IMG/VR virus record: IMGVR_UViG_3300031974_001836
Source of the DNA: an uncultured virus (IMG/VR IMGVR_UViG_3300031974_001836)
Lineage: Duplodnaviria; Heunggongvirae; Uroviricota; Caudoviricetes
Strand: one strand, 5' to 3'
Length of the DNA: 20,000 nt
Shown here: positions 2 to 19,709 of the stretch, one piece after another
Numbering within the stretch: position 1 is the stretch's first letter
Layout: each line of letters opens with the position of its first letter
The notes under the pieces: generated by a model
What the model saw: only the letters and a program-made list of their open reading frames with translations
Told to the model about the DNA's origin: nothing
Database searches by the model: none
Made by a program: the position numbers and the translations under genes

Positions 2-3000
2 CTGAATTACACCACCAACGAAAACGATTGCGTTTGCGTCTTGAGTGTAGAAGTCTAGTGCGAATGTAGTCTGTGCACCGTCACCTGCCATAGTTTGACG
101 TTTCGCATTGTTGAACGCCAACTGAGTAGGATCTTGTAGAGACATTCCGTCAAGAGTGTTGTTAACACGTAGTACGTAACCGTTCTTACCGTCGTATGCT
201 GAATCAGATACATCTGCAAGTTCTAATAGAGACTTAGCAGTGTCGATTGAGAATACACCAGTAGAAGAGTTGTATGATACCTTGCCTTCACCAGCAGTGT
301 CTACTAGAGATACTGAAGCACGAGCAAGTGCATCACTGAAGAACTTCTTACTACCCTCTACTAGATCGTCTGTAGAGAACTGAGAGATGTGCTGTGCCGC
401 AAGACCTGCGTCCAACTGACCCTTGTTCACTGCATCTGTTGCTACAGTACCGTTTGCTACACCCTCAACCTTGTTGCCAGACATGTCCAAGTTGCCAGAC
501 ATTGAATCACCTGACTTCTGTACACGACCGTCGATTTGAGTTTGTAGTGCAGTATCTGCCGCAGCGAATTCACCACGGATTGCTGTACCCTGTGCCGCAC
601 GATCAGTAATCTCTTGTGCTAGACCAGAAGCATTTGTAGCAATATCTGTCTGGTTAGTTTGGATTAGAGATAGTAGATCACCGTCTCCAGACTGTAGTGC
701 CGCAACGATCTCTGTTAGAGAATCTAGTGCCGCAGAGTCTGTGTTAGATACGACGAAGTCGATCTGAGACTGTAGTGATGCTTCAACACCTTGTGCACGT
801 GAAGATTCACTTGCAATTGCCTGAGCATTAGTAGTGATTAGATCACCTAGGTCTGACTCAGCACCAGTTGCACGAGCAACCTCACCGTTGATTAGAGTGC
901 GGTTTGCACCTTCAGCAGCGGTAGCACGAGCAATTTCTGCGTCTAGTTGTGACTGTAGGTTGGTAACACCAGAGTTGCGTGTGTTGTCAACCGACTTGAT
1001 TGCCGCATCTAGTTTCGCAGCCGCATCTGCTAGAGATGTAGATGCATCTAGGTAGTTTGTACCTGCTGGTGTGACGTATGTACCATCTGTTGCAAGACCT
1101 GAAGCAAGTTGAGTTGCAGACATTTCTGTCTCAACAACAGTTAGACGTGTGTCTAGTCCGTTGTCCGCAACCTGACGATCATTGATCTCTTGATCGATAC
1201 GACCATCTAGTGCGTCATCTGCGTTCTCACGTAGAGTTGCTTCACCAGCAACGATACCGTCTGCGTATACCTTAGCAGCTGCTTCCGCATTGTTTGCCTT
1301 GGTAGTCGCATCTGAAGCAGCGTTTGAAGCAACAACTGCGTCACGAGCAATGTAGTCTGCCTGATCTGTGATGCGATCTGCACCTAGATCAGCACGGATT
1401 GCTAGGTCACCGTCGATACGTGCTTGGATTTCTGTTGATAGACGATCACTATCTGCATCAGCACGTGCTTCTGCGGCAGTCATACGACCTTCAACTGCGT
1501 CTAGTTCACCGTGAACTTCGTTAACCGCACCAGTAATTGTTTGTGCAGTAGTGTCGAAGTTGCCTGTGCCTAGTTTAGTTTCAAGTGCAAGGATATCACC
1601 TTCGTTGATAGTCAAACGACCATCTTGTAGAGTGTTCTTGCTCTCGACCGCATCCATGCGAGATTCTAGTGAATCCCCACGACCTTCGATCGCATTCATT
1701 TCTGTCTCTAGGACACCGATGCGTGAAGTGTTGTCGTCTGCTTGTGTGTGTAGTTCGTTTACAGCACCAGTAACGTTGTTTGCAACAGTTGCTAGAGTGA
1801 CCACACCCATCTGCGACTGTAATGTATCAACGTGACCTTCTTCTGTAGTCATGCGAGATTCTAGTGAAGTTGCACGACCTTCGACTGCGTCCATCTCACT
1901 CTGTAGAGTGTCGATTTCACCTTCGGCAGTTGTTACACGAGCAGTTAGAGCAGTTAGATCACCTGCTTCTGCACCTAGTTCTTCGTGTAGTTCGTTAACT
2001 GCGTCTGATAGGTTAGTAGCAGTTGTTAGAAGAGTTGCTGAACCCTGCTTAGTTTCTAGTGAAGTTGCACGACCTTCTAGTACAGTTGCACGACCTTCGA
2101 CTGCAGATGCACGTCCCTGTAGGACAGATACGTCTGAATCGTGACCGTCTAAACGACCTTCTGCTACATCCATTTCTGATTGTAGTAGATCAACGTTAGC
2201 TGCTTCAACGTCTAGTTCACCGTGGATCTCGTTGATCGCGTCAGAAACGTTTGTTGCAGTTGTGTGTAGTAGTGCAGAACCCTGCTTAGTTTCTAGGGCA
2301 GTTGCACGACCTTCAACACCACTCAAACGAGTGTTCTGTACGATCTGATCAGAATCTAGACCGTTTAGACGGTTTGTGTGAGCAACGTCTTTCGCTTCTA
2401 GATCAGTAGCACGTAGTTCGACTGCGTCCATTTCTGATTCTAGAGTAGTTAGACGACCACCGTTTGCGTCGATAACACCTTGTAGGTCTGAGTCTGCGTT
2501 TTGGAATGCACTAACGATTTCTGTTAGTGAATCTAGTGCAGCTCCATCTTCGTTAGAAACGATGAAGTCAACACGACCTTCTAGAGTTGTTAGGTCTGTA
2601 CGGATACCAGTTTCGACACCAGTAGCACGAACAATCTCTGCATCCAACTGATTTTGTAGGTCTGTAACGTCACCTGATTGTAGATTTTGTAGAGCAAGGA
2701 TATCTGAATCGTTTGCAGTAACTTGTGCCTGAACACTATCTACGTCAGTACGTAGACCAGCTTCGATACCTTCAGCACGTGTCTGTTCTGCATCGATGTT
2801 GCCTTGTAGGACACCTTCTGCGGCAGTTGCACGGTTAACTTCAGCAGTGATTTGTGCTTGGTTGTCTGCGTGATCAGTTGCTTGTAGTACTTGTAGAGCA
2901 AGGATATCAGAATCGTTTGCTGTAATTTGTGCTTGGTTAGAGTCGACATCGGTACGTAGACCTGATTCGATTCCAGTAGCACGAGTGATCTCTGCGGCAA

Positions 3001-5437
3001 GACCGTCTGCGTTAACCTGCTCTGCGGCAGATGCACGGACGATTTCTGCATCGATCTGATCTTGTAGGTCTTGTACGTCTGATCCGACTAGACCTTGTAG
3101 AGCAAGGATGTCTGAATCGTTCGAAGTAACCTGAGACTGTAGAGAGTCTGCTGTTGACTGTAGACCTGCCTCAACACCTGAAGCACGTACAACTTCTGCT
3201 AGGATTGCCGCATTTAGATCGGAATCTGCTTCGTTGAAGTCTGCTTCTACTGTATCTAAACGGTTGCTTAGACCCTGTTCAGCTGCCTGTGCACGTGCAA
3301 CTTCTGTGTTGATCGCACCTAGGTTAGAAGAGATGTTTGAGATGTTTGTGTTGATGTCTGTGCGAAGTACTGATTCAGCAGCTTCTGCACGTTGACGTTC
3401 TGTAACAACTGCTTGTGCGTTAGTTTGCTCTGCAGTTGATGCACGAGTAACCTCTGCTGTGATCTGTGCTTGTAGATCGTCAACATCGATTGTAGTGTTA
3501 CTGCTAAGTGCGTTGACCTGTGCTTGTAGGTCTGAGTCACCAGATGCACGTGCAACTTCTTCTGCACGTAGATCGACTTCGTTTTGAGCAGCTAGTGCTT
3601 CAACGTCATCCATCTCACCTTCTAGTACTGTTGTACGTAGAGATAGTGCTTCCTCTGCAGCTTCTGCACGTGCCTTTTCGACATCGTGTAGAGTCTGTGC
3701 AAAGTTAGTTGCTTGTGTCTTAGCAGTTGCGATACGTGCTGTAATTGTGTTACCAGCAGTTCCGTCAACTGAAGCATCACCGATAAGAGCAGTGTCTTGT
3801 GCGTCTGCGTGTGCAATCGCAACTGCTTGGTGTGCGTCTGCTTCTTGGTCAGTGTATGCTTTTGCTTGTGCAAGTACGTCGTCTGTAGAGACGTTTAGAT
3901 CAAGTTCTAGTGCGTCGATCTGAGACTGTAGACCTGCGTCTGCAGTTGAACGAGTTGATGCCTCTGCGTCGATGTTGCCCTGTAGGACAGAATCAGCAGA
4001 TGCACGAGTTGATGCTTCGTTCGAGATTGCAGTAGTGTTAGAAGAAATCAATGCAGACATGTCTGAATCAGCAGACTGGAATGCATCAACGATTTCTGTT
4101 AGTGAGTCTAGTGCTGCAGGATCAGTGTTGTTAGTGATGAAGTCAACTTGTGATTGTAGACCTGCTTCAACACCTTCAGCACGTGCTTTTTCTGTAGCAA
4201 CTTCTGCTGAGTTAGCAACGTCACCAGCAAGACGATCAGCAATTTCTTGATCGATACGAGCACCTAGATCTGAGTCACCTGCGATACGAGCAGCGTTCTC
4301 GATAGCAACATTGCTGTTTGCTTCGACGATTGCTTCTGCTTTTGCAGTTGCGATACGATCTGTGATAGTGTTGCTTGTAGTACCATCAACAGTTGCATCA
4401 CCGATCATTAGAGCATCTTGTGCTTCAGCATGTGCCTTAGCATCTGCTTCTGCTTGAACGATGTCTGCACCTAGATCAGTACGAACCTGTGTATCAGCAA
4501 CAGCACGAGCAACGATCTCATCTGAGATGTTTGATGCGTTCGCAGCTTCTGCCGCAGTTGCACGAGAAACTTCGTCTGCAAGATCTTGTGCGATCGCAGA
4601 TTCTGCGTTAGATGCACGAGTAACTTCTGCGTCGATTTGAGACTGTAGAGAACCAGACTTAGTCTCTTCTGTAGTCAAACGAGCAGATAGAGCATTGTCT
4701 GCCGCAATACGGGCAGTCTCTTCTGCACCGATTAGACCAGCAAGTGAAGACTCTGCAGATTGTGCACGTGAGATCTCTGTAGTAACACGATCATCAATTG
4801 CTTGTTCTGATTGAGTCGCACGAGTGACTTCGTTTGTGATAGCAGTGCTGTTTGCGATGATTGATGCAGATAGGACATCGTCCGCTGATTCAAATGCCGC
4901 AATGATTTCTGCAAACGAGTCTAGTGCTTCTGGACTTGTGTTGTTTAGGATGTTATCGATACGAGTCGATAGTGTAGAATCAGCTGCTTGGTAAGCAGTT
5001 TCGATTGCGTTCTCACGAGCAATTGCACGGGTTTCTTCTGCCGTGATGTTTGCTTGTAGAGTAACGTCTGCCGATGAACGAGTAGATGCTTCTGCGTCGA
5101 TGTTTGATTGTAGTAGAGTCTCTGCCGCAACTGCACGGTTTGTTTCTACTAGAACATCTGCGTCAATCTGCGCAGCGACATCTGTATTAGCACGATCAGC
5201 GGTATAGTATAGGTTAGAACCTTCCGCTAGGTCAGACGTGCTGAACGAAGCGAAGAACTGGTCTGCACCAATCTTCTTTAGTGAGTCAGAACCCACATCG
5301 TAAAGAAGAGTAAAGCAGTCCGCAGGATTTACCATACCTTGAAGGGTTGATTGTCCCTGTACCGCACTTTCGTCAAGTTTGGTATTGATTACCGCCTTGT
5401 CCGCTAGTGCAGGGGATTTAATCTGCCTAAATGCCAT
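2..5437 (-). CDS. Very long segmented coiled-coil virion fibre (fibritin/tail-fibre-like), >=1812 aa, 3' end outside the window
   Basis: Not in the ORF track because there is no stop in the window. ATG at 5437 follows an AGGAGA RBS and begins MAFRQIKSPALADKAVINTKLD. The same frame is still open at the left edge (...GDGAQTTFALDFYTQDANAIVFVGGVIQ). I translated both ends and several internal segments, not every codon. Contains Ala/Glu/Arg heptads (E..RA..AE..L...I), four LDS[LF].EI..A[FL] motifs, four A[VI]NE[LIV]H motifs and a YadA-like neck (KVEGVANGTVATDAVNKGQLD, about 415-490). Confidence 0.88.
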   Translation of the reverse strand, partial: MAFRQIKSPALADKAVINTKLDESAVQGQSTLQGMVNPADCFTLLYDVGSDSLKKIGADQFFASFSTSDLAEGSNLYYTADRANTDVAAQIDADVLVETNRAVAAETLLQSNIDAEASTRSSADVTLQANITAEETRAIARENAIETAYQAADSTLSTRIDNILNNTSPEALDSFAEIIAAFESADDVLSASIIANSTAITNEVTRATQSEQAIDDRVTTEISRAQSAESSLAGLIGAEETARIAADNALSARLTTEETKSGSLQSQIDAEVTRASNAESAIAQDLADEVSRATAAEAANASNISDEIVARAVADTQVRTDLGADIVQAEADAKAHAEAQDALMIGDATVDGTTSNTITDRIATAKAEAIVEANSNVAIENAARIAGDSDLGARIDQEIADRLAGDVANSAEVATEKARAEGVEAGLQSQVDFITNNTDPAALDSLTEIVDAFQSADSDMSALISSNTTAISNEASTRASADSVLQGNIDAEASTRSTADAGLQSQIDALELDLNVSTDDVLAQAKAYTDQEADAHQAVAIAHADAQDTALIGDASVDGTAGNTITARIATAKTQATNFAQTLHDVEKARAEAAEEALSLRTTVLEGEMDDVEALAAQNEVDLRAEEVARASGDSDLQAQVNALSSNTTIDVDDLQAQITAEVTRASTAEQTNAQAVVTERQRAEAAESVLRTDINTNISNISSNLGAINTEVARAQAAEQGLSNRLDTVEADFNEADSDLNAAILAEVVRASGVEAGLQSTADSLQSQVTSNDSDILALQGLVGSDVQDLQDQIDAEIVRASAAEQVNADGLAAEITRATGIESGLRTDVDSNQAQITANDSDILALQVLQATDHADNQAQITAEVNRATAAEGVLQGNIDAEQTRAEGIEAGLRTDVDSVQAQVTANDSDILALQNLQSGDVTDLQNQLDAEIVRATGVETGIRTDLTTLEGRVDFIVSNEDGAALDSLTEIVSAFQNADSDLQGVIDANGGRLTTLESEMDAVELRATDLEAKDVAHTNRLNGLDSDQIVQNTRLSGVEGRATALETKQGSALLHTTATNVSDAINEIHGELDVEAANVDLLQSEMDVAEGRLDGHDSDVSVLQGRASAVEGRATVLEGRATSLETKQGSATLLTTATNLSDAVNELHEELGAEAGDLTALTARVTTAEGEIDTLQSEMDAVEGRATSLESRMTTEEGHVDTLQSQMGVVTLATVANNVTGAVNELHTQADDNTSRIGVLETEMNAIEGRGDSLESRMDAVESKNTLQDGRLTINEGDILALETKLGTGNFDTTAQTITGAVNEVHGELDAVEGRMTAAEARADADSDRLSTEIQARIDGDLAIRADLGADRITDQADYIARDAVVASNAASDATTKANNAEAAAKVYADGIVAGEATLRENADDALDGRIDQEINDRQVADNGLDTRLTVVETEMSATQLASGLATDGTYVTPAGTNYLDASTSLADAAAKLDAAIKSVDNTRNSGVTNLQSQLDAEIARATAAEGANRTLINGEVARATGAESDLGDLITTNAQAIASESSRAQGVEASLQSQIDFVVSNTDSAALDSLTEIVAALQSGDGDLLSLIQTNQTDIATNASGLAQEITDRAAQGTAIRGEFAAADTALQTQIDGRVQKSGDSMSGNLDMSGNKVEGVANGTVATDAVNKGQLDAGLAAQHISQFSTDDLVEGSKKFFSDALARASVSLVDTAGEGKVSYNSSTGVFSIDTAKSLLELADVSDSAYDGKNGYVLRVNNTLDGMSLQDPTQLAFNNAKRQTMAGDGAQTTFALDFYTQDANAIVFVGGVIQ

Positions 5438-6806: not shown

Positions 6807-7163
6807 TTACCTCGTGACCGAAGGGTTGACTTTTATCTTACCTTCTAGTATTCTTTCTATAATGGTATGACCTTCTTCATCAACGAAACTGATCTCAACA
6901 TCATAGACGTATCTACCACGAGTGGATAGAGCATCGGTCTGTAGGTTAGTTAGGGATAATGTGACGACACCTTCCAGTGCTGGAGTAGGTATTACAGCAG
7001 TAAAGTCGATCGACTCTGTACTCCTGTATGTCTTTTTCATTTTGGCAGCTGCTGTATAACCAGTTAGATCTTTTTTAGATCCATCGGGATTCACTAACTC
7101 TAATTGTAGAGCTAGGTCCGCACCCTGATCAATTGTGAAATCTTCGTAAGTTGCCATAGTCAT
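6807..7163 (-). CDS. Conserved T4-like virion structural protein (BppU-N-like beta-sandwich)
   Basis: Pattern IDQGAD...DLTGYTA.A.M.K...G.VTLSLT..QT..L..GRYVYDVEI...RILEG...V.P.VTR. The start is probably the ATG at 7163 or 7157, not the TTG at 7166. Confidence 0.75.
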   Translation of the reverse strand: MTMATYEDFTIDQGADLALQLELVNPDGSKKDLTGYTAAAKMKKTYRSTESIDFTAVIPTPALEGVVTLSLTNLQTDALSTRGRYVYDVEISFVDEEGHTIIERILEGKIKVNPSVTR

Positions 7164-7194
7164 CAAGACCCTAAGTGTATAAACGTTCTGTGAC

Positions 7195-7936: not shown

Positions 7937-8670
7937 ACGATTGGTTTATCCTTGTTAAGACCAGCAGAGAAGTGTCGTAAGATCACTGGCCCTGTGTCTG
8001 GTTTTGTTATTGCCCAATTAAGTGCGTTATAGTAGTTCCACCTTAGATCGTCATCAAAGATTCCAACCTTAAGGTCTTTGTACTTTTCCTCTTTCTCTAC
8101 TAACCACCAGAGTGAGAACTGGTCCCAAGACTTGAGACTATCAGCATATCCCTCTGGCCACCATGTATCATTCATCTGTCTGTATGTCAAATCCCACCAG
8201 TCTTGCATGAACTCACGCACGATTGGTTTGGTCATATCATATAGACAGACACCACCACATAGTGTGAACTTAGAAACACCCTCTGGGGTGTCGAAGTCAC
8301 GTTCTGCGTAGATGTAATCACGATCATCTGTTAACGCAGAAAAAACCATGTCATGGTCTTTCATTTCATCCCAAACTTTAACGATGTCTTCGTGTTCGCA
8401 TTCCATGTCTGCGTCGATGTACATCGTTAGATCATATGGAGATTTTGCCATGCCCCATAATTTGGCACGGTAGTGGTCGTCACAAAAGATAATATCATCT
8501 GCTACATCTCTGCCACGGTCATCTAAGAACTGCTCTTCGGTGACTAGGCAAATCTTACATTCATCTTCCGGTTCGTAAAAGTCTCGGATCGACTCTGCTA
8601 GATTGATTGCATACAGATAAAAATTGCGTTTCTTCGACGCAACGATAACAAAACCTTTACTCTTTTCCAT
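7933..8670 (-). CDS. Putative GT-A fold glycosyltransferase (nucleotide-diphospho-sugar transferase / GT8-like)
   Basis: 245 aa with K...M..SPYD.TMYIDAD (DxD motif), CGGVCLY, WDQ, WN and a C-terminal ILRHF. Overlaps both neighbouring genes. Confidence 0.75.
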   Translation of the reverse strand: MEKSKGFVIVASKKRNFYLYAINLAESIRDFYEPEDECKICLVTEEQFLDDRGRDVADDIIFCDDHYRAKLWGMAKSPYDLTMYIDADMECEHEDIVKVWDEMKDHDMVFSALTDDRDYIYAERDFDTPEGVSKFTLCGGVCLYDMTKPIVREFMQDWWDLTYRQMNDTWWPEGYADSLKSWDQFSLWWLVEKEEKYKDLKVGIFDDDLRWNYYNALNWAITKPDTGPVILRHFSAGLNKDKPIV

Positions 8671-9116
8671 TACTCGGCCTCTAGTTGTTCTTGCAGAATC
8701 ATGATCGAGTACATATCGACTTCGATCTTAGATTTGGCACGACGTAGTTTTGCCTTTAGTTTGCGGTTCTTAGAGTTCTTGATTTCATCCACCTCAAATG
8801 CTTCCAACTTGTAGTTAAATAACTTCTCAAGTTTTCGTGCTTTGTTGTGTTCTTCCTCACGAATTTTATCTTCTTCTGCTTCTGCCTTTTTGCGTTCGAC
8901 TCGATCAGTAGTTTCTTGATCGATTCGTTCTTCACCTAAAGCCTCGACAACCTCATTAAACAGTTCGTTTTCATTGCCATCTTTATCATGCCGACGCAGA
9001 AACATTTGTTGATGCGTTACACGACCAACATCATCTTCAAGTTCTAGGATACAGTTCAGTTCTTTCTTTTCGTCTGTTTCCCAGAACGCATTATCCATCC
9101 ATTGTTTACGACTCAT
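8670..9116 (-). CDS. Hypothetical protein, charged and helical C-terminal half (148 aa)
   Basis: ATG at 9116 has a GGAG RBS 6 nt upstream, so it is preferred over the TTG at 9128. Its stop overlaps the glycosyltransferase start. Confidence 0.75.
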   Translation of the reverse strand: MSRKQWMDNAFWETDEKKELNCILELEDDVGRVTHQQMFLRRHDKDGNENELFNEVVEALGEERIDQETTDRVERKKAEAEEDKIREEEHNKARKLEKLFNYKLEAFEVDEIKNSKNRKLKAKLRRAKSKIEVDMYSIMILQEQLEAE

Positions 9117-9159
9117 TAATATCTCCAAAGAGTTCAGTTCAATTCAACTGTATATATGC

Positions 9160-9196: not shown

Positions 9197-9225
9197 ATTA
9201 TACCATAAGGATTGCTATTATGCAA
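9197..9225 (-). promoter_or_regulatory. Sigma70-like promoter TTGCAT-17 nt-TATAAT with extended -10 (TGG-TATAAT)
   Basis: -35 at 9225-9220, overlapping the last codons of the fibre gene. -10 at 9202-9197. Spacer is 17 nt. Confidence 0.6.
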
Positions 9226-12200
9226 CCCTCACATATAGTGTATAGGTATCAGTAACGTGTGTTAGTGTATCACTGATCGTTGCACCTACGTAGTTACCTA
9301 GGAACGATCTTGAGTAGTTACCCACGAAGTCACGAGCATAGTTGCCCTCAAATCCACGTGTGTAGTTACCAGTGAAATCACCTACGTATGTAGAAACACG
9401 GTCACGTGAGTATGCACCACTGTATGCAGACGTACGGATACGAGCATAAGCAGATACACGGACACGTGCATAGTTACCTACGAAGTCACGAGAGTAAGTA
9501 CCAGTGTACTCACCGACGAATCCACGTGCGTAGTTACCCACGAAGTCACCGACAAAGTCACGAGCATATGCACCCGTGTACTCACCAGTAAATGTACGTG
9601 CGTAGTTACCTACGAAGTCACCAGCAAATTCACGTGTGTACTGACCAGAGAACGTACGTGCATAGTTACCAGTAAAGGTGCGGTTATATGCACCAGTGTA
9701 TTCACCAACGAATCCACGTGAGTAGTTGCCTACGTAATCACCAGCAAACTGACGTGAGTAAGTGCCTGAGTATGCCCCAGTGTATTCACCAACGAATGTG
9801 CGGTTGTAAGCACCAGTGTACTGACCAGAGAATCCACGTGAGTAGTTACCGACGTAGTTTCCACCGAAGTCACGAGTGTAGTTACCTACGTAATCACCAG
9901 CAAAGTTACCGACGAAATCACCGATGAAGTTACCTGCGAAGTTACGTGAGTAGTTACCTGTGAAGTCACGAGCATAGTTACCAGCAAAGTCACCTGCAAA
10001 GTTAGTTACACGATCACGTGTGTATGCAGAAGAACGGTTGCGGACATATGCCGATACACGAGTACGTGCGTAAGCAGAGTAACGTGTGCGTGTTGATGTG
10101 CGAGTGTACTCACCAGTAAAGTTACCAGCAAAGTCACCAGCAAAACCACGTGCATAGTTACCTACGAAGTCACCAGCAAAACCACGAGAGTAGTTACCGA
10201 TGAAGTTACCAGCAAAGTTAGTTACTCGATCTCTAGTGAAGTCACCAACGTAGTTGGTTACACGAGTACGAGCATATGCTGAACTACGGCTTCTGGTTGA
10301 AGTACGTGTGCTGTTACGTGTGTATTCACCAATGAAGTTACCTGCGAAGTTTGTTACACGGTTACGTGTGAAGTCACCAACATAGTTAGTGATACGAGTA
10401 CGTGCATAAGCAGAGTAACGTACACGAGTTGAAGTACGGACACTGTTACGAGTGTAGTTGCCTACAAAGTTACCAGCAAAGTTTGTAACACGGTTACGAG
10501 TAAAGTCACCAACGTAGTTAGTGATGCGAGTACGTGCGTATGCTGAATAACGAGTACGGGTTGAAGTGCGAGTAGATGTACGTGCGTAGTTTCCTACGTA
10601 ATCACCTGTGTAGTAACCAGTACGTACGTAGTTTCCTACGAAGTCACCTGCATAGTAACCAGTACGTGTGTAGTAACCAGTGTTGGTTGACGTACGGGTT
10701 GACGTACGAGCATAGTTGCCTTCATAAGAAGCACCACGAGTACGTGCATAGTTACCTTCATAAGAAGCACCACGAGTACGTGAGTAGTCACCGACATATG
10801 ATGCGGCACGAGTACGTGTGTATGCTACTGTACCTACGTAATCACCAGCAAAGTTACCAACGTAGTTTCCGGTGTAGGATGCACCACGACTACGAGTGTA
10901 TGCTACGTTACGGGTATAGTTGGTTGCACGAGTACGTTGATAGTTTACGGTACCTACGTAATCACCAGCAAAGTTACCTACGTAATCACCAGTATAAGTT
11001 GCGGCACGGTTACGAGTATAGTTTTGTGACCACTCACCAATGAAGTCACCTGTGAAGTCACCTGCGTAGTTTGCAGTACCGACGAAGTTACCAGTATAAC
11101 TTGAAGTTCCTGTCCATGATAGACCATATCTCCATTCCGCACCATATGATACACGGAATGTACCTCTTGAATACCATACACCGTTCTTCTGTACAGAAGT
11201 TGTACCTGAAGTACCAGAAGCAAATCCAACATATACTCCGTCAGCATAGAGCATGATACCTTGCATCTCGTAGTCATATACCCACTGGGTGACGTTTGCA
11301 ACGTATACGTCAGTGTTGGTCTGAGTGCCAGTAGAGGTACGTGTTGACGTAACTGAACGAGAATAGTTGACAATTGAGTTACGAGTCGAGTTAGTAGCAC
11401 CACCACGTGAGTAGTCACCTGTATAGGATGCCGCACGACTACGAGTGTAGTTAGTTGCACGAGTACGAGTAAAGTTGGTCTGACGTGTGTAATCACCTAA
11501 GAAGTTACCAGTGTATCCTACTGTACGAGAGTAGTTACCAGTATAGGTGGCTGCACGTGTACGAGTATAATCTGTTGCACGAGTACGAGTAAAGTTGGTC
11601 TGACGTGTGTAGTTACCGACATACGATGCCGCACGAGTACGTGCATAGTTACCGACATACGATGCCGCACGGTTACGTGCATAGTTACCAACATACGATG
11701 CGGCACGAGTACGTGCATAGTTACCTACGAAGTCACCTGCGTAGTATAAAGTACGAGTATATGCTAGTACACGAGTCGATGTACGTGTTGACGTACGAGT
11801 GTAATCTAGTACACGAGTCGACGTACGTACAGAGGTACGTGCGTAGTTGCCTACAAAGTCACCTGCGTAGTTGCCAGCAAACCCACGTGCGTAGTTACCA
11901 ACAAAATCTCCGGTAAACGTAGTAGCATAGTTGCCTACGAAATCACCAGCAAAGTTAGTTACACGATCACGGGTATAGTTACCAGTAAAGTCACCTGTAT
12001 AGTTTCCTGTGAATCCACGTGCGTAGTTACCTACGAAGTCACCAGTAAAGGTTGTCGCATAGTTACCTACGAAGTCTCCCGCAAAGTTAGTGACACGATC
12101 ACGAGCATAGTTACCAATGAAGTCACCAGCAAAGTTGCCAGCAAACGCACGTGCATAGTTACCAACAAAATCTCCAACGAAATCACGGGCATAGTTGCCA

Positions 12201-13933
12201 ATGAAGTTGCCAGCATAGTTGGTTACACGATCACGAGTATATGCTGAGTAACGAGTACGTGTTGACGTACGAGCATAAGCACTGTAACGAGTACGAGTAG
12301 ATGTACGTGTTGATACACGAGCATAGTTACCGACATAGTTGCCAGCAAACCCACGTGAGTAGTTGCCTACAAAGTTACGTGCATAGTTACCTTGGAAACT
12401 GCGTGAGTAGTTACCAACGAAGTTACCAGCAAAGTTTGTAACACGGTTACGAGTATATGATGATACACGAACACGTGAGTAGATGCCAGCAAAGTTAGTG
12501 ACACGATCACGAGTGTAGTTAGTTACACGAGTGCGGACGTAGTTATCAGAATAAGCAGAAACACGAGTACGAGTGTAAGTGCCTGCGTATGCTGAAACAC
12601 GGTTACGTGAATAAGTACCTGCGTATGCAGAGACACGGTTACGTGAGTAAGTTCCTGCATAGGTACCAGTATAAGACGACACACGAGTACGAGTGTAGTT
12701 AGCAGAGTATGCAGAACTACGTGTACGTGAGTATGTGCCTGAGTAAGATGATACACGACCACGAGTGTACGAAGATGCACGGCTGCGTGAGAATGTACCA
12801 GTAAAGTTTGTTACACGGTTACGAGTGTATGTTGATACACGTGCTCGTGTATAAGTTCCAGCAAAGTATCCAGTGAATGCTGTTAGACGTGTACGTGAGT
12901 AAGTCGACGTACGAGTCCTTGAGTAAACACCTGAGTATGCAGAACCACGAGTACGAGAATAGTTACCCTCGAAACCACGTGTGTAGTTTCCTGTGAAGTC
13001 ACGTGAGTATGTGCCCGTGTAATCACCTACGAAAGTACGTGAGAAAGTATTGACACTATTACGTGTATATGAGGAAACACGATTTCTTGAGTAAGCAGAA
13101 ACACGAGTTGTTACATACGATGATGGGCGTGTGCGAGTATAACTCTGATCCACGATCGTACGACGTGTGTTTGTTGCTGAACCCTTTGCCATCCAAGTAC
13201 CTGCAGATGTAGGTACACCTTGTGTATCAGAACGTAATTGATACGAACCGATAGCACCAGCAGTGGCACGTAGAGTTTTTGCACGTTGACCAAGTGTGTA
13301 CTTGATCTGTGCGTCTGTCATTTCTTTAAATCCGTCGACAGAAGAACCATCATAGACAGTTGCAACTGGACGAACAACATCATAAGTAGTTGCACTTAAT
13401 GATGTCTTTTTCCAAATATGGTAGTTTACAGTAGTGCCGTCTCCATGAGTATCTGTAAATACATTCTCAATATGGATACTCCAATCTAAGCCTGGAGATG
13501 TTTGAGATAGACGGAAGGATCCTTGATATTCTAATCCCGCAACGTCTTTCATGACACGTTCTGTAAGTAGGTCTAAGTCCCCGTCGTTCATTTCATAGAA
13601 ACCAGGGTTAGGCCCCACGTCATAGTATCCTACTGGACGGGCAAAATCTGCACCGGACTCATCTGCTGATCCACCCACTTGCTTAAGAGCAGTAGTTGTT
13701 GTGGTACCAGTGATCTGAGATGCAGGGTGTGTCCCTGCTGGTTCGTTGTAGTACGTATCTACGAAGGAACCAATATTCACACTTCCGGTTAAACTGATAT
13801 TACCGATATCACTAGCAGTGGCCTCTGCTAATGCTTCTCCAACCTTAATGGCAAGATATGCTTCTTCTGCCGGTTGGAATTCCTGTAGGTCACCATCATT
13901 AATGATTTTTAGTGGTATACTAGATGCTGACAC
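9218..13933 (-). CDS. Giant Arg/Tyr/Gly/Thr tetrapeptide-repeat fibre protein with mirror-symmetric arms (1571 aa)
   Basis: GTG start with a GAGAG RBS and a late promoter upstream. Architecture is 264-aa base + 606-aa arm + 75-aa tip + 606-aa arm + 20-aa tail, which sums to 1571. Confidence 0.9.
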   Translation of the reverse strand: MSASSIPLKIINDGDLQEFQPAEEAYLAIKVGEALAEATASDIGNISLTGSVNIGSFVDTYYNEPAGTHPASQITGTTTTTALKQVGGSADESGADFARPVGYYDVGPNPGFYEMNDGDLDLLTERVMKDVAGLEYQGSFRLSQTSPGLDWSIHIENVFTDTHGDGTTVNYHIWKKTSLSATTYDVVRPVATVYDGSSVDGFKEMTDAQIKYTLGQRAKTLRATAGAIGSYQLRSDTQGVPTSAGTWMAKGSATNTRRTIVDQSYTRTRPSSYVTTRVSAYSRNRVSSYTRNSVNTFSRTFVGDYTGTYSRDFTGNYTRGFEGNYSRTRGSAYSGVYSRTRTSTYSRTRLTAFTGYFAGTYTRARVSTYTRNRVTNFTGTFSRSRASSYTRGRVSSYSGTYSRTRSSAYSANYTRTRVSSYTGTYAGTYSRNRVSAYAGTYSRNRVSAYAGTYTRTRVSAYSDNYVRTRVTNYTRDRVTNFAGIYSRVRVSSYTRNRVTNFAGNFVGNYSRSFQGNYARNFVGNYSRGFAGNYVGNYARVSTRTSTRTRYSAYARTSTRTRYSAYTRDRVTNYAGNFIGNYARDFVGDFVGNYARAFAGNFAGDFIGNYARDRVTNFAGDFVGNYATTFTGDFVGNYARGFTGNYTGDFTGNYTRDRVTNFAGDFVGNYATTFTGDFVGNYARGFAGNYAGDFVGNYARTSVRTSTRVLDYTRTSTRTSTRVLAYTRTLYYAGDFVGNYARTRAASYVGNYARNRAASYVGNYARTRAASYVGNYTRQTNFTRTRATDYTRTRAATYTGNYSRTVGYTGNFLGDYTRQTNFTRTRATNYTRSRAASYTGDYSRGGATNSTRNSIVNYSRSVTSTRTSTGTQTNTDVYVANVTQWVYDYEMQGIMLYADGVYVGFASGTSGTTSVQKNGVWYSRGTFRVSYGAEWRYGLSWTGTSSYTGNFVGTANYAGDFTGDFIGEWSQNYTRNRAATYTGDYVGNFAGDYVGTVNYQRTRATNYTRNVAYTRSRGASYTGNYVGNFAGDYVGTVAYTRTRAASYVGDYSRTRGASYEGNYARTRGASYEGNYARTSTRTSTNTGYYTRTGYYAGDFVGNYVRTGYYTGDYVGNYARTSTRTSTRTRYSAYARTRITNYVGDFTRNRVTNFAGNFVGNYTRNSVRTSTRVRYSAYARTRITNYVGDFTRNRVTNFAGNFIGEYTRNSTRTSTRSRSSAYARTRVTNYVGDFTRDRVTNFAGNFIGNYSRGFAGDFVGNYARGFAGDFAGNFTGEYTRTSTRTRYSAYARTRVSAYVRNRSSAYTRDRVTNFAGDFAGNYARDFTGNYSRNFAGNFIGDFVGNFAGDYVGNYTRDFGGNYVGNYSRGFSGQYTGAYNRTFVGEYTGAYSGTYSRQFAGDYVGNYSRGFVGEYTGAYNRTFTGNYARTFSGQYTREFAGDFVGNYARTFTGEYTGAYARDFVGDFVGNYARGFVGEYTGTYSRDFVGNYARVRVSAYARIRTSAYSGAYSRDRVSTYVGDFTGNYTRGFEGNYARDFVGNYSRSFLGNYVGATISDTLTHVTDTYTLYVRVA
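9281..11098 (-). repeat. Returning tetrapeptide-repeat arm (aa 946-1551)
   Basis: 148 tetrads plus 7 dipeptide skips, in mirror order to the outgoing arm. Confidence 0.9.
11324..13141 (-). repeat. Outgoing tetrapeptide-repeat arm (aa 265-870)
   Basis: 148 tetrads of types YxRx, F/YxGx, RxS/T/Ax and SxRx, plus 7 dipeptide skips. Confidence 0.9.
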
Positions 13934-14010: not shown

Positions 14011-14490
14011 TTAACTTTTTTGAGGCCAGACCACTTCCTGTACAGAAGTAACACCATCTAGGTGGTCGGTGATATCTCTTAACTGCTGCCGGTAGTTTCT
14101 CCATGACTGCAACTCTTGCTCAGATAGAGGAGCATCAAGTGCTTGAGTCCAGTCACAAGCAGTGAGTAATTGGTCTCGAATCATACGAACATCTCTAACC
14201 AAATCTTCGTGGTTCCATGTCCAATCTAAAGACTCGAAGTTCCACGTTGCATGCTTGTTTGGTGGTAACCCTGTGAATTTAAAGGTTTTTGTTGATGCAT
14301 CAAACCAGTGATAATCCATGAAGTAGGACAAGTCACTGCATCCTGCAGGAAGACTATCCTCATGAACATAGATAATACGTTGAGAACCATCGGGAGTAAA
14401 CCCCTCTGAATCAATCTTCACTTGCGGAAGAGAGATCCTTTCTAGTCTTCCTGTCTGCGTATTAGCATATACAACATAGCATAATTTCAT
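14011..14490 (-). CDS. Phage tail (fibre) assembly chaperone
   Basis: C-terminal R..RD.LL..CDWTQ..D.PL......W..YRQ.LRDIT......V.WP signature. Lies directly after a fibre gene. Confidence 0.85.
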   Translation of the reverse strand: MKLCYVVYANTQTGRLERISLPQVKIDSEGFTPDGSQRIIYVHEDSLPAGCSDLSYFMDYHWFDASTKTFKFTGLPPNKHATWNFESLDWTWNHEDLVRDVRMIRDQLLTACDWTQALDAPLSEQELQSWRNYRQQLRDITDHLDGVTSVQEVVWPQKS

Positions 14491-19304: not shown

Positions 19305-19709
19305 CTATGGTTTAGGTGGCCAAACAACTGACTCCAAATCAGAATAGTCTTGTGTGATATCACGAAGTGTTTGTCTGTACACGCTCCATTCTTCTCGTTG
19401 ACCGTCACTCAGACCATTGTCATCTAACCTAGTCCAGTCACATTCCTGAAGTTTAGTATTACGTGCCTGACGCAATTCTTCTATTTCGATCTGTGCGATA
19501 ACATCATCTGGATAAGGTGCTACAATTTGTGCTACAATATCATCAGATTCAATGTATTTGTTCAGAACAATTGCTCGTGTAGCATCATACTCTTCTTGCC
19601 ACGGAATAAAAAGTTTCCATGCTTCTGGTGATGGTACCACATTATTGGGAAAGGATTGAGGAGAACCCACTGGAATACCGTTATGTACTTTTATAAACTG
19701 TATGCTCAT
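19305..19709 (-). CDS. Phage tail (fibre) assembly chaperone, paralogue of 14011..14490
   Basis: Contains LRQARNTKLQECDWTRLDD..LS..QREEWSVYRQTLRDITQ.......VVWPPKP. AGGA RBS. Confidence 0.85.
   Translation of the reverse strand: MSIQFIKVHNGIPVGSPQSFPNNVVPSPEAWKLFIPWQEEYDATRAIVLNKYIESDDIVAQIVAPYPDDVIAQIEIEELRQARNTKLQECDWTRLDDNGLSDGQREEWSVYRQTLRDITQDYSDLESVVWPPKP

Follow-up and report, generated by a model that had tools for sequence, protein, structure and literature searches.

What fold is written into a long repetitive protein whose two halves mirror each other? The question is raised by P0001, a predicted fibre protein of 1571 residues. Its gene (9218..13933, minus strand, GTG start, the whole open reading frame, ORF) lies in a stretch of 20,000 nucleotides from an uncultured virus of the Caudoviricetes (IMG/VR IMGVR_UViG_3300031974_001836), referred to here as the window. 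From its sequence and those of its relatives, we think it likely that the P0001 chain runs out, passes through a tip domain and comes back, with its arms side by side, antiparallel and kept in one residue register.

Mirror symmetry and residue pairing between the arms

P0001 is laid out as 264 + 606 + 75 + 606 + 20 = 1571 residues. An N-terminal globular domain (residues 1–264; 13142..13933), conserved among relatives, is the presumed attachment end. The N-arm follows (residues 265–870; 11324..13141), then a hypervariable tip domain of 75 aa (residues 871–945; 11099..11323), recognized by comparison with the closest relative, L003. The C-arm (residues 946–1551; 9281..11098) leads into a conserved C-terminal tail (residues 1552–1571, ending in TYTLYVRVA, plus the stop codon; 9218..9280). 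All of these are on the minus strand, and the two arms with the tip together make up 9281–13141 (residues 265–1551). The protein matched no Pfam or PHROG profile, and phmmer, run with its full length on every PDB chain, returned 0 matches at E<=1.

The arms are built of tetrapeptides (tetrads, positions a to d). Successive aromatic residues in P0001 are spaced at intervals of 4 or 8 in 207 of 268 cases. Position a is Y (.43), F (.31) or R (.18), position b is V/T/A/S, position c is G (.41) or R (.35), and position d is N/T/D. Over the 1212 arm residues there are 164 Arg against 61 Asp and Glu, for a net charge of +103, with a single Pro and no His, Cys, Lys or Met. Arms as extremely basic as these might favour contact with anionic cell-surface polymers.

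Parsing of the translation gave 148 tetrads and seven two-residue skips in each arm. From the N-domain to the tip, the N-arm reads 111 tetrads, LD, 3, LA, 1, LY, 12, TN, 6, VG, 3, TN, 10, VT, 2. From the tip onward, the C-arm reads 2, AN, 10, VN, 3, VA, 6, VA, 12, GY, 1, GY, 3, GY, 111, the mirrored order. An initial annotation of this DNA had described tetrapeptides broken by these same dipeptide skips, with block sizes of 2, 10, 3, 6, 12, 1, 3 and 111 outward from the tip in both directions, and our reading reproduced both exactly. The equality of the arms at 606 aa, and the sum of the parts to the ORF length, were also confirmed. An automatic parse with a hidden Markov model (HMM) found the same arms at 604 and 609 aa, with some short blocks merged in ambiguous STRT stretches.

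Mirroring of the seven inner blocks is one of 2520 possible orders. Placing seven skips randomly among the 147 tetrad boundaries reproduces the mirror with p = 3.9e-12. In the DNA of the gene there is no inverted repeat matching the arms, just two weak pairs of 25–30 nt with 73–76% complementarity, so the symmetry exists in the protein only. A DNA palindrome as the origin of the arm symmetry was rejected for the same reason, those two weak pairs being all that was found.

Could the arms nonetheless stand apart, each an ordinary parallel trimeric shaft of the beta-helix or solenoid kind, with a mirror that arose by chance or from a shared template? Such a reading has in its favour the likeness between G-, N- and D-rich repeats and beta-helical fibre turns, and structure prediction with AlphaFold2 (AF2) gave no long-range model. 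Against such shafts stands the mirror statistic just given. In a triple beta-helix or solenoid, moreover, one repeat makes one coil, and blocks of 1–111 tetrads separated by two-residue skips are not multiples of any coil length.

A more specific signal came from the residues themselves. Mutual information (MI) between tetrad positions of the two arms was computed as a function of register from the 148 + 148 hand-parsed tetrads. At i + j = 1813, where i and j are residue numbers in the two arms, position c of the N-arm shares 0.89 bit with position c of the C-arm (z 24.9), and the two a positions share 0.60 bit (z 24.5). At i + j = 1815 the cross terms peak, with 0.73 bit for N-arm a with C-arm c and 0.80 bit for N-arm c with C-arm a (z 24–26). 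Intermediate values, up to z 9–15, were seen 1–2 tetrads off each peak; by 3–4 tetrads off, z was at most 5.8 and mostly below 3. Coupling of the b/d face between the arms was weak (z 4–8). The couplings at i + j = 1813–1815 bridge up to 1280 residues. A residue code at a single register with z near 25 is further evidence against arms that do not touch.

The pairs behind this signal are few in kind. Among 147 c–c rungs, we counted R-G 44 times, G-R 34, S-R 16, T-G 14, R-S 9, G-T 8, G-G 8 and A-A 5, with R-R at 3. For the a–a rungs the leading pairs were Y-Y (54), R-F (26) and F-R (17), and R-R was absent (0). The initial annotation had placed residue i opposite about 1815-i in a chain that goes out and returns, a placement that proved right to within two residues along all 606.

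In the structure that we propose, the chain would extend outward for 606 residues after the 264-aa N-domain, pass the 75-aa tip, and return for 606 residues beside the outgoing arm, in antiparallel register at i + j = 1813–1815. The antiparallel return would make the 20-aa C-tail end beside the N-domain. The arms would read each other through one face of the tetrad, by an aromatic pair (Y-Y) or by one Arg set against a small or aromatic residue. Rungs of this a/c face would include R-G, R-S, G-T and F-R, and would almost never bring two Arg together. The other face (b/d) would carry small or polar, more variable residues. Because the tetrad alternation puts a/c on one face and b/d on the other, and because Pro is nearly absent, we infer that the arms form a long, hydrogen-bonded beta ribbon. 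Pairing would be within one chain (in cis), and the fibre, if fully extended, would reach up to 200–206 nm. Its likely function would be that of a long, thin, Arg-rich rod, carrying at a distance from the baseplate a module for host binding that can be exchanged. The tip would fill this role or, among relatives, a domain of propeller or lectin-like type, placed either at the tip or within the arm that returns.

Arm length and paired change among close relatives

A scan of IMG/VR with the N-domain yielded 27 loci with 15 complete proteins, 14 of them distinct. The N-domain is 95% identical in L003 (251/264) and 65–73% identical in many of the IMG/VR loci. It contains three loosely similar helix-type motifs, roughly F-x-E-M/F...L...A...G-S/N-x-x-L, at residues ~16–48, 111–143 and 202–234, of which only the second and third align with each other above shuffles (z 3.3). 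This triplet may represent an internal three-fold pseudo-symmetry. The tail motif of P0001 closes nearly all homologues that carry the same N-domain. We considered that N-domain and C-terminal type co-occur through contact, and dropped the idea since the P0001-type tail occurs with other N-domains too.

L003 is 86–87% identical to P0001 in the arms (511/590 and 514/590) and identical throughout the tail (20/20), and its tip shares just 20 of 75 residues (27%). Relatives of the tip were sparse: a word-based search gave 0 matches, and HMMER, run in full over 1.84 billion representatives, added just 4 weak ones. An iterated tip HMM was discarded as contaminated by tetrads.

Insertions and deletions (indels) between the L003 and P0001 arms were matched in all three cases by an indel of equal size at the mirrored position (16/16, 12/12 and 10/10 aa). 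The single indel between relatives L008 and L021 was likewise matched (28/28). For each complete protein we also took the dominant pairing sum S, the value of i + j at which the arms pair best, and subtracted protein length. The difference was 242–247 in 12 of the 14 distinct close relatives, which range from 850 to 1639 aa; for P0001 it is 242. In the remaining two (L025 and L026, 2101 aa), the outer S of 2343 again gives 242. The near constancy of this difference means that the C-terminus would return to the N-domain boundary whatever the length of the arms. Across the relatives, arms remain equal from ~245 to ~1030 aa. With register to be kept, one arm could gain or lose residues only if the other did so equally.

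L025 and L026 also differ in plan, with an 18-aa turn in place of the tip domain and a 235-aa globular domain midway in the C-arm. A domain midway along the returning arm implies that the binding module need not sit at the tip. Unequal arms or non-mirrored skips had been named in the initial annotation as findings that would speak against a hairpin; we looked for both in the close relatives and encountered neither.

Substitutions too were coordinated. Identity among relatives is 85–96% at a/c and 51–81% at b/d. Between P0001 and L003, double substitutions at paired a/c sites were enriched (contingency table [[262,7],[6,4]], odds 25, p 2.5e-4). Enrichment was also seen with L011 (odds 10.7, p 1e-5) and L023 (odds 7.1, p 4e-4), with odds of 3.4–5.3 in five other relatives and 1.4, not significant, in L012; these comparisons share ancestry and hence are not independent. 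Among the paired swaps that keep the code were A-A to F-G, S-F to Y-Y and F-R to R-F. From these comparisons, the tip is the variable part of the protein, and the arms constrain each other's sequence and length.

The best relative in GenBank is WJE88074.1, a 3347-aa protein of phage C48C1 (OQ984149.1, Kyanoviridae) annotated as hypothetical. N-domain, tetrad arms, type of tip and C-tail are all those of P0001, with 47% identity over 82% of the query, and gene order, pairing code and arm equality are shared as well. Its arms are longer, at ~1032 aa, its returning arm has five globular domains looped out as inserts, and it contains a 75-aa duplication. The code recurs where this longer chain would fold, at S = 2664: RR is 1, RG 60 and GG 1, and the MI is 0.79 over a baseline of ~0.45–0.5. 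A complementarity alignment paired 1020 of its 1032 N-arm residues with six tetrad segments of the C-arm, ending at the first residue of the N-arm. Compared with P0001, both of its arms carry an extra 28 aa (skip, five tetrads, skip, one tetrad) at the mirrored place.

The fold-back proposed in the initial annotation is thus strongly backed by four independent tests at the level of sequence: register-specific complementarity, the code in C48C1, mirrored indels with equal arms, and paired substitutions. Arms without mutual contact, by contrast, would have to accommodate the matched indels of L003, the enriched paired substitutions and the closure seen in 14 of 14 close relatives, and we regard that explanation as exceedingly improbable.

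The wider family and the form of the fibre

A broader database search brought in 120 homologues of 864–1798 aa, which were parsed with an HMM trained on P0001. Two arms were found in 81. Their lengths correlate (r = 0.67) and agree within 5% in 26 proteins, the best matches being 376/375, 374/375, 336/341 and 283/281. Alignment by label only favoured the mirrored order in 61 of the 81 and the direct order in 14, with 6 ties, a weakly discriminating measure. An ungapped full-matrix scan for S placed the best value near the tip in 6 of 81 of these distant homologues; the scan fails because gaps and harsh penalties favour short overlaps. Five homologues parsed otherwise, some of them resembling C-terminal fragments that start inside a globular insert. 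Weak tblastn matches to Synechococcus phages (63 records, S-RIM2 in all of the matches listed) are put down to another repeat and do not belong to this family: the one inspected, an S-RIM2 structural protein (L029:4417-10155, residues ~1549–1666), carries a different repeat, (V/L)TG(N/D), in ~24 copies with no aromatics.

Tips and inserts of the homologues P0004, P0069 and P0033 contain FG-GAP beta-propeller repeats (E 3.6e-90, 1.9e-62), and the same set has LamG/ConA-like domains (E 2.5e-23, 7.1e-17), placed at the tip or at the side. In both the FG-GAP propeller and the LamG fold, the termini are adjacent.

The window itself holds what is probably a second fold-back fibre, judged by the sequence of P0002 (14492..18895, minus strand, 1467 aa). 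Its N-domain (residues 1–375) differs from that of P0001. Arms of 367 and 373 aa (residues ~376–742 and 851–1223) surround a 108-aa tip (743–850), and a 244-aa C-domain (1224–1467) ends the protein. About 29 metagenomic homologues share this plan. Code alignment of the P0002 arms scored z = 4.1 against tetrad shuffles. Scans for a single S were weak in its family, the expected S ranking first in P0102 and second in P0002. AF2 modelled the tip of a P0002 fragment (residues 655–940, with 28 homologues) at pLDDT 83–95. In this model, DSSP assigned strands at roughly mirrored places (79–87/197–205 and 47–60/220–233), read without coordinates. Comparison of the tip model with 48,161 PDB representatives matched no solved fold (best Z 3.8). 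A three-copy complex prediction of the same fragment scored 0.00 without controls, and speaks neither for nor against a trimer.

A number of results weigh against the fold-back reading of P0001. For pairs of close relatives below ~85% identity, 123 matched pairs of indels stand against 693 unmatched single indels, and L008 compared with L023 shows 0 matched and 13 unmatched, though the net change is -12/-12. Indel matching is noisy here because the aligner sets gaps arbitrarily within repeats. In C48C1, an exact 75-aa tandem duplication puts 29 unmatched tetrad residues into the C-arm. In the wider family, arm lengths agree within 10% in just 44 of the 81 two-arm proteins, and 16 of the 81 rise above tetrad shuffles at z>3 in the code alignment. 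When the outer 120 residues were scanned, closure fell where expected in 28 of 91, with ~10 to be expected by chance. Three tetrad blocks were parsed in a further 37 homologues, and in 16 of these the three arms are similar (e.g. 116/117/114). AF2 returned a pLDDT of 29.7 for P0001 residues 731–1085 without an alignment, and with a 29-row alignment the arms of the P0002 fragment stayed below 50, only the tip being confident. That P0001 is a virion fibre is itself a prediction. On logical grounds, finally, an antiparallel homodimer would give the same i + j symmetry as a hairpin.

The duplicated segment in C48C1 (L001:10438-20481, residues ~2008–2156) spans the end of an insert and the 29 tetrad residues, and is either real or an assembly artefact.

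The three-arm proteins (P0081, P0087, P0092, P0121 and P0069 are examples) have their arms separated by two globular domains. If the three arms are all co-extensive, the C-tail comes to lie at the far end. In P0069, P0055 and P0087, the anchor at which arm 1 pairs with arm 2 is the expected one. These forms fall outside the simple two-arm picture.

The homodimer would consist of two extended antiparallel chains, the N-arm of one paired in trans with the C-arm of the other. Such a rod would have double the length, with the N-domains at its opposite ends and the two tips in the centre. A two-fold dimer of this kind satisfies the i + j = S symmetry, the matched indels and the covariation equally well. 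A fibre must attach by one end, however. The arms of L025 and L026, joined by just 18 residues, suit a hairpin turn in cis, as do propeller and LamG tips with their adjacent termini. We consider pairing in trans highly improbable.

If the chain does fold back on itself, how many chains make up the fibre? One answer, to which we give a little under an even chance, is a homotrimer forming a six-stranded antiparallel needle with its strands along the axis, a much lengthened counterpart of the gp37 needle of phage T4, with b/d in a narrow core and the Tyr/Arg face outside. Tail fibres are generally trimers, and genes resembling PF16778 chaperones lie within the module. Composition is restricted at all four tetrad positions; the small b/d residues would fit a narrow core, and a buried Arg face would sit badly with 164 Arg and a charge of +103. 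It counts against the trimer that b/d positions, its supposed core, vary more among relatives than a/c. The tip of P0002 folds confidently as a single chain. The three motif copies in the N-domain could, as a weak argument, replace a trimer. The gp37 needle of phage T4 binds iron through His, and the P0001 arms offer no His for metal sites of that kind.

The other answer is a monomer, in which the two arms (three in three-arm relatives) would form a single-layer beta ribbon with a cross-strand ladder of Tyr and Arg on one face. That ladder, at a/c, is the most conserved feature and covaries between the arms. The three equal arms of three-arm relatives, the self-contained tip of P0002 and the triple motif in the N-domain also agree with a monomer, and monomeric single-layer rods exist in SasG/Aap and OspA. 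Indirect hints at such a rod, with both of its faces exposed, are the stronger conservation of a/c than of b/d and the net charge of +103. Yet we know of no phage fibre that is a monomeric ribbon of such length, a two-stranded ribbon of 200 nm seems mechanically weak, and neighbouring genes of the chaperone-like type are what one typically finds with trimeric fibres. On balance a monomeric ribbon appears rather unlikely.

Known fibre designs and the gene neighbourhood

The closest known design is the needle of T4 gp37 (Bartual et al. 2010, PDB 2XGF), where each of three chains extends to a head and then returns, making an antiparallel needle of six strands (PMC9659904). The receptor-binding tip, needle included, is given there as the last 215 residues of gp37 (PMC9659904). 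P0001 resembles this design, on sequence evidence, in a chain that would run out to a distal head and back with antiparallel neighbours, in a receptor-binding part (putative in P0001) that is mid-sequence and at the far end, and in belonging to a T4-like tail-fibre module. It differs from gp37 in showing no sequence similarity to it (the PDB search was empty at E<=1). Its arms are 606 aa, and up to ~1030 aa in relatives, compared with the 215 residues stated for the gp37 tip. They are also built from a regular tetrapeptide with a pairing code, and have 0 His in 1212 residues.

Other designs share single features with P0001. Beta-helix and solenoid shafts (the C-terminus of T4 gp5, gp12, tailspikes) likewise make long thin phage fibres from short repeats of G, N and D; they are parallel, with strands across the axis and local contacts, whereas the couplings in P0001 are long-range and antiparallel. 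The G5-E repeats of SasG/Aap and the central sheet of OspA are thin rods of two or three strands, with exposed faces and cross-strand ladders, and may serve as a model for two- and three-arm fibres. Unlike P0001, they are tandem small domains of bacterial surface proteins and not one giant hairpin. Conceptually, P0001 is like an RNA stem-loop, with antiparallel complementary arms whose pairing is kept by compensatory substitutions and matched indels. Unlike that of RNA, its code would be steric and chemical, and degenerate (big against small, one Arg per rung).

In full-text literature, subscription-only papers not being searchable, we found no description of such a fibre, and a term search of a tail-fibre structure atlas (PMC12143355) met no mention of a hairpin or of cyanophage fibres. 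The initial annotation knew of no described phage fibre of this kind, in agreement with the empty literature and PDB sequence searches. Tentatively, P0001 and its relatives might represent a new class of fibrous protein: a single chain that zips to itself over 600 to >1000 residues by an evolvable pairing code, as a monomeric or few-stranded beta ribbon along the axis, with length tuned by matched insertions and modules plugged in at the turn or into an arm. We see this as possible, and doubtful at present.

If the fold-back is real, abundant marine cyanophages would reach their hosts with fibres of a design for which no phage example is described. Independent variation of fibre length (through matched arm indels) and of binding (through the tip or propeller- and lectin-like inserts) would then be explained. 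The fold-back would also provide a protein counterpart of the RNA stem-loop, and a natural template for nanofibres of programmable length. Such fibres, annotated as hypothetical in metagenomes, could be spotted by a sequence rule: S minus length is constant, and R is almost never opposite R. Should the reading hold, P0001 would also be a case of intramolecular contacts readable from a single sequence.

The surroundings of P0001 fit a fibre module. The window is a run of minus-strand genes with three very large ORFs. Between the two fibre genes lies a tail-fibre assembly chaperone-like gene (PF16778, E 5.7e-16; 14011..14490, minus), and a second PF16778 gene of this type is at 19305-19709 (minus). 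An LtfC-like gene is found at 6807-7166 (minus). The order in C48C1, namely chaperone-like gene, fibre homologue, three small ORFs, LtfC-like gene and large fibre gene, is the same as in the window, and the C48C1 fibre module lies downstream of baseplate wedge genes. Judged by the shared homologue and gene order, P0001 belongs to a Kyanoviridae-type fibre module of a T4-like marine cyanophage.

Directly downstream of P0001 is an ORF of 152 aa (8670..9128, minus); its counterpart in C48C1, by position and size only, is an ORF of about equal length. The third very large ORF (2-5437, minus) runs off the window at >1812 aa; part of it weakly resembles the YadA stalk, scoring under the Pfam cut-off, and it has a PHROG match without assigned function. 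Its counterpart by position in C48C1 is a 'tail fiber protein' that crosses the origin of that record.

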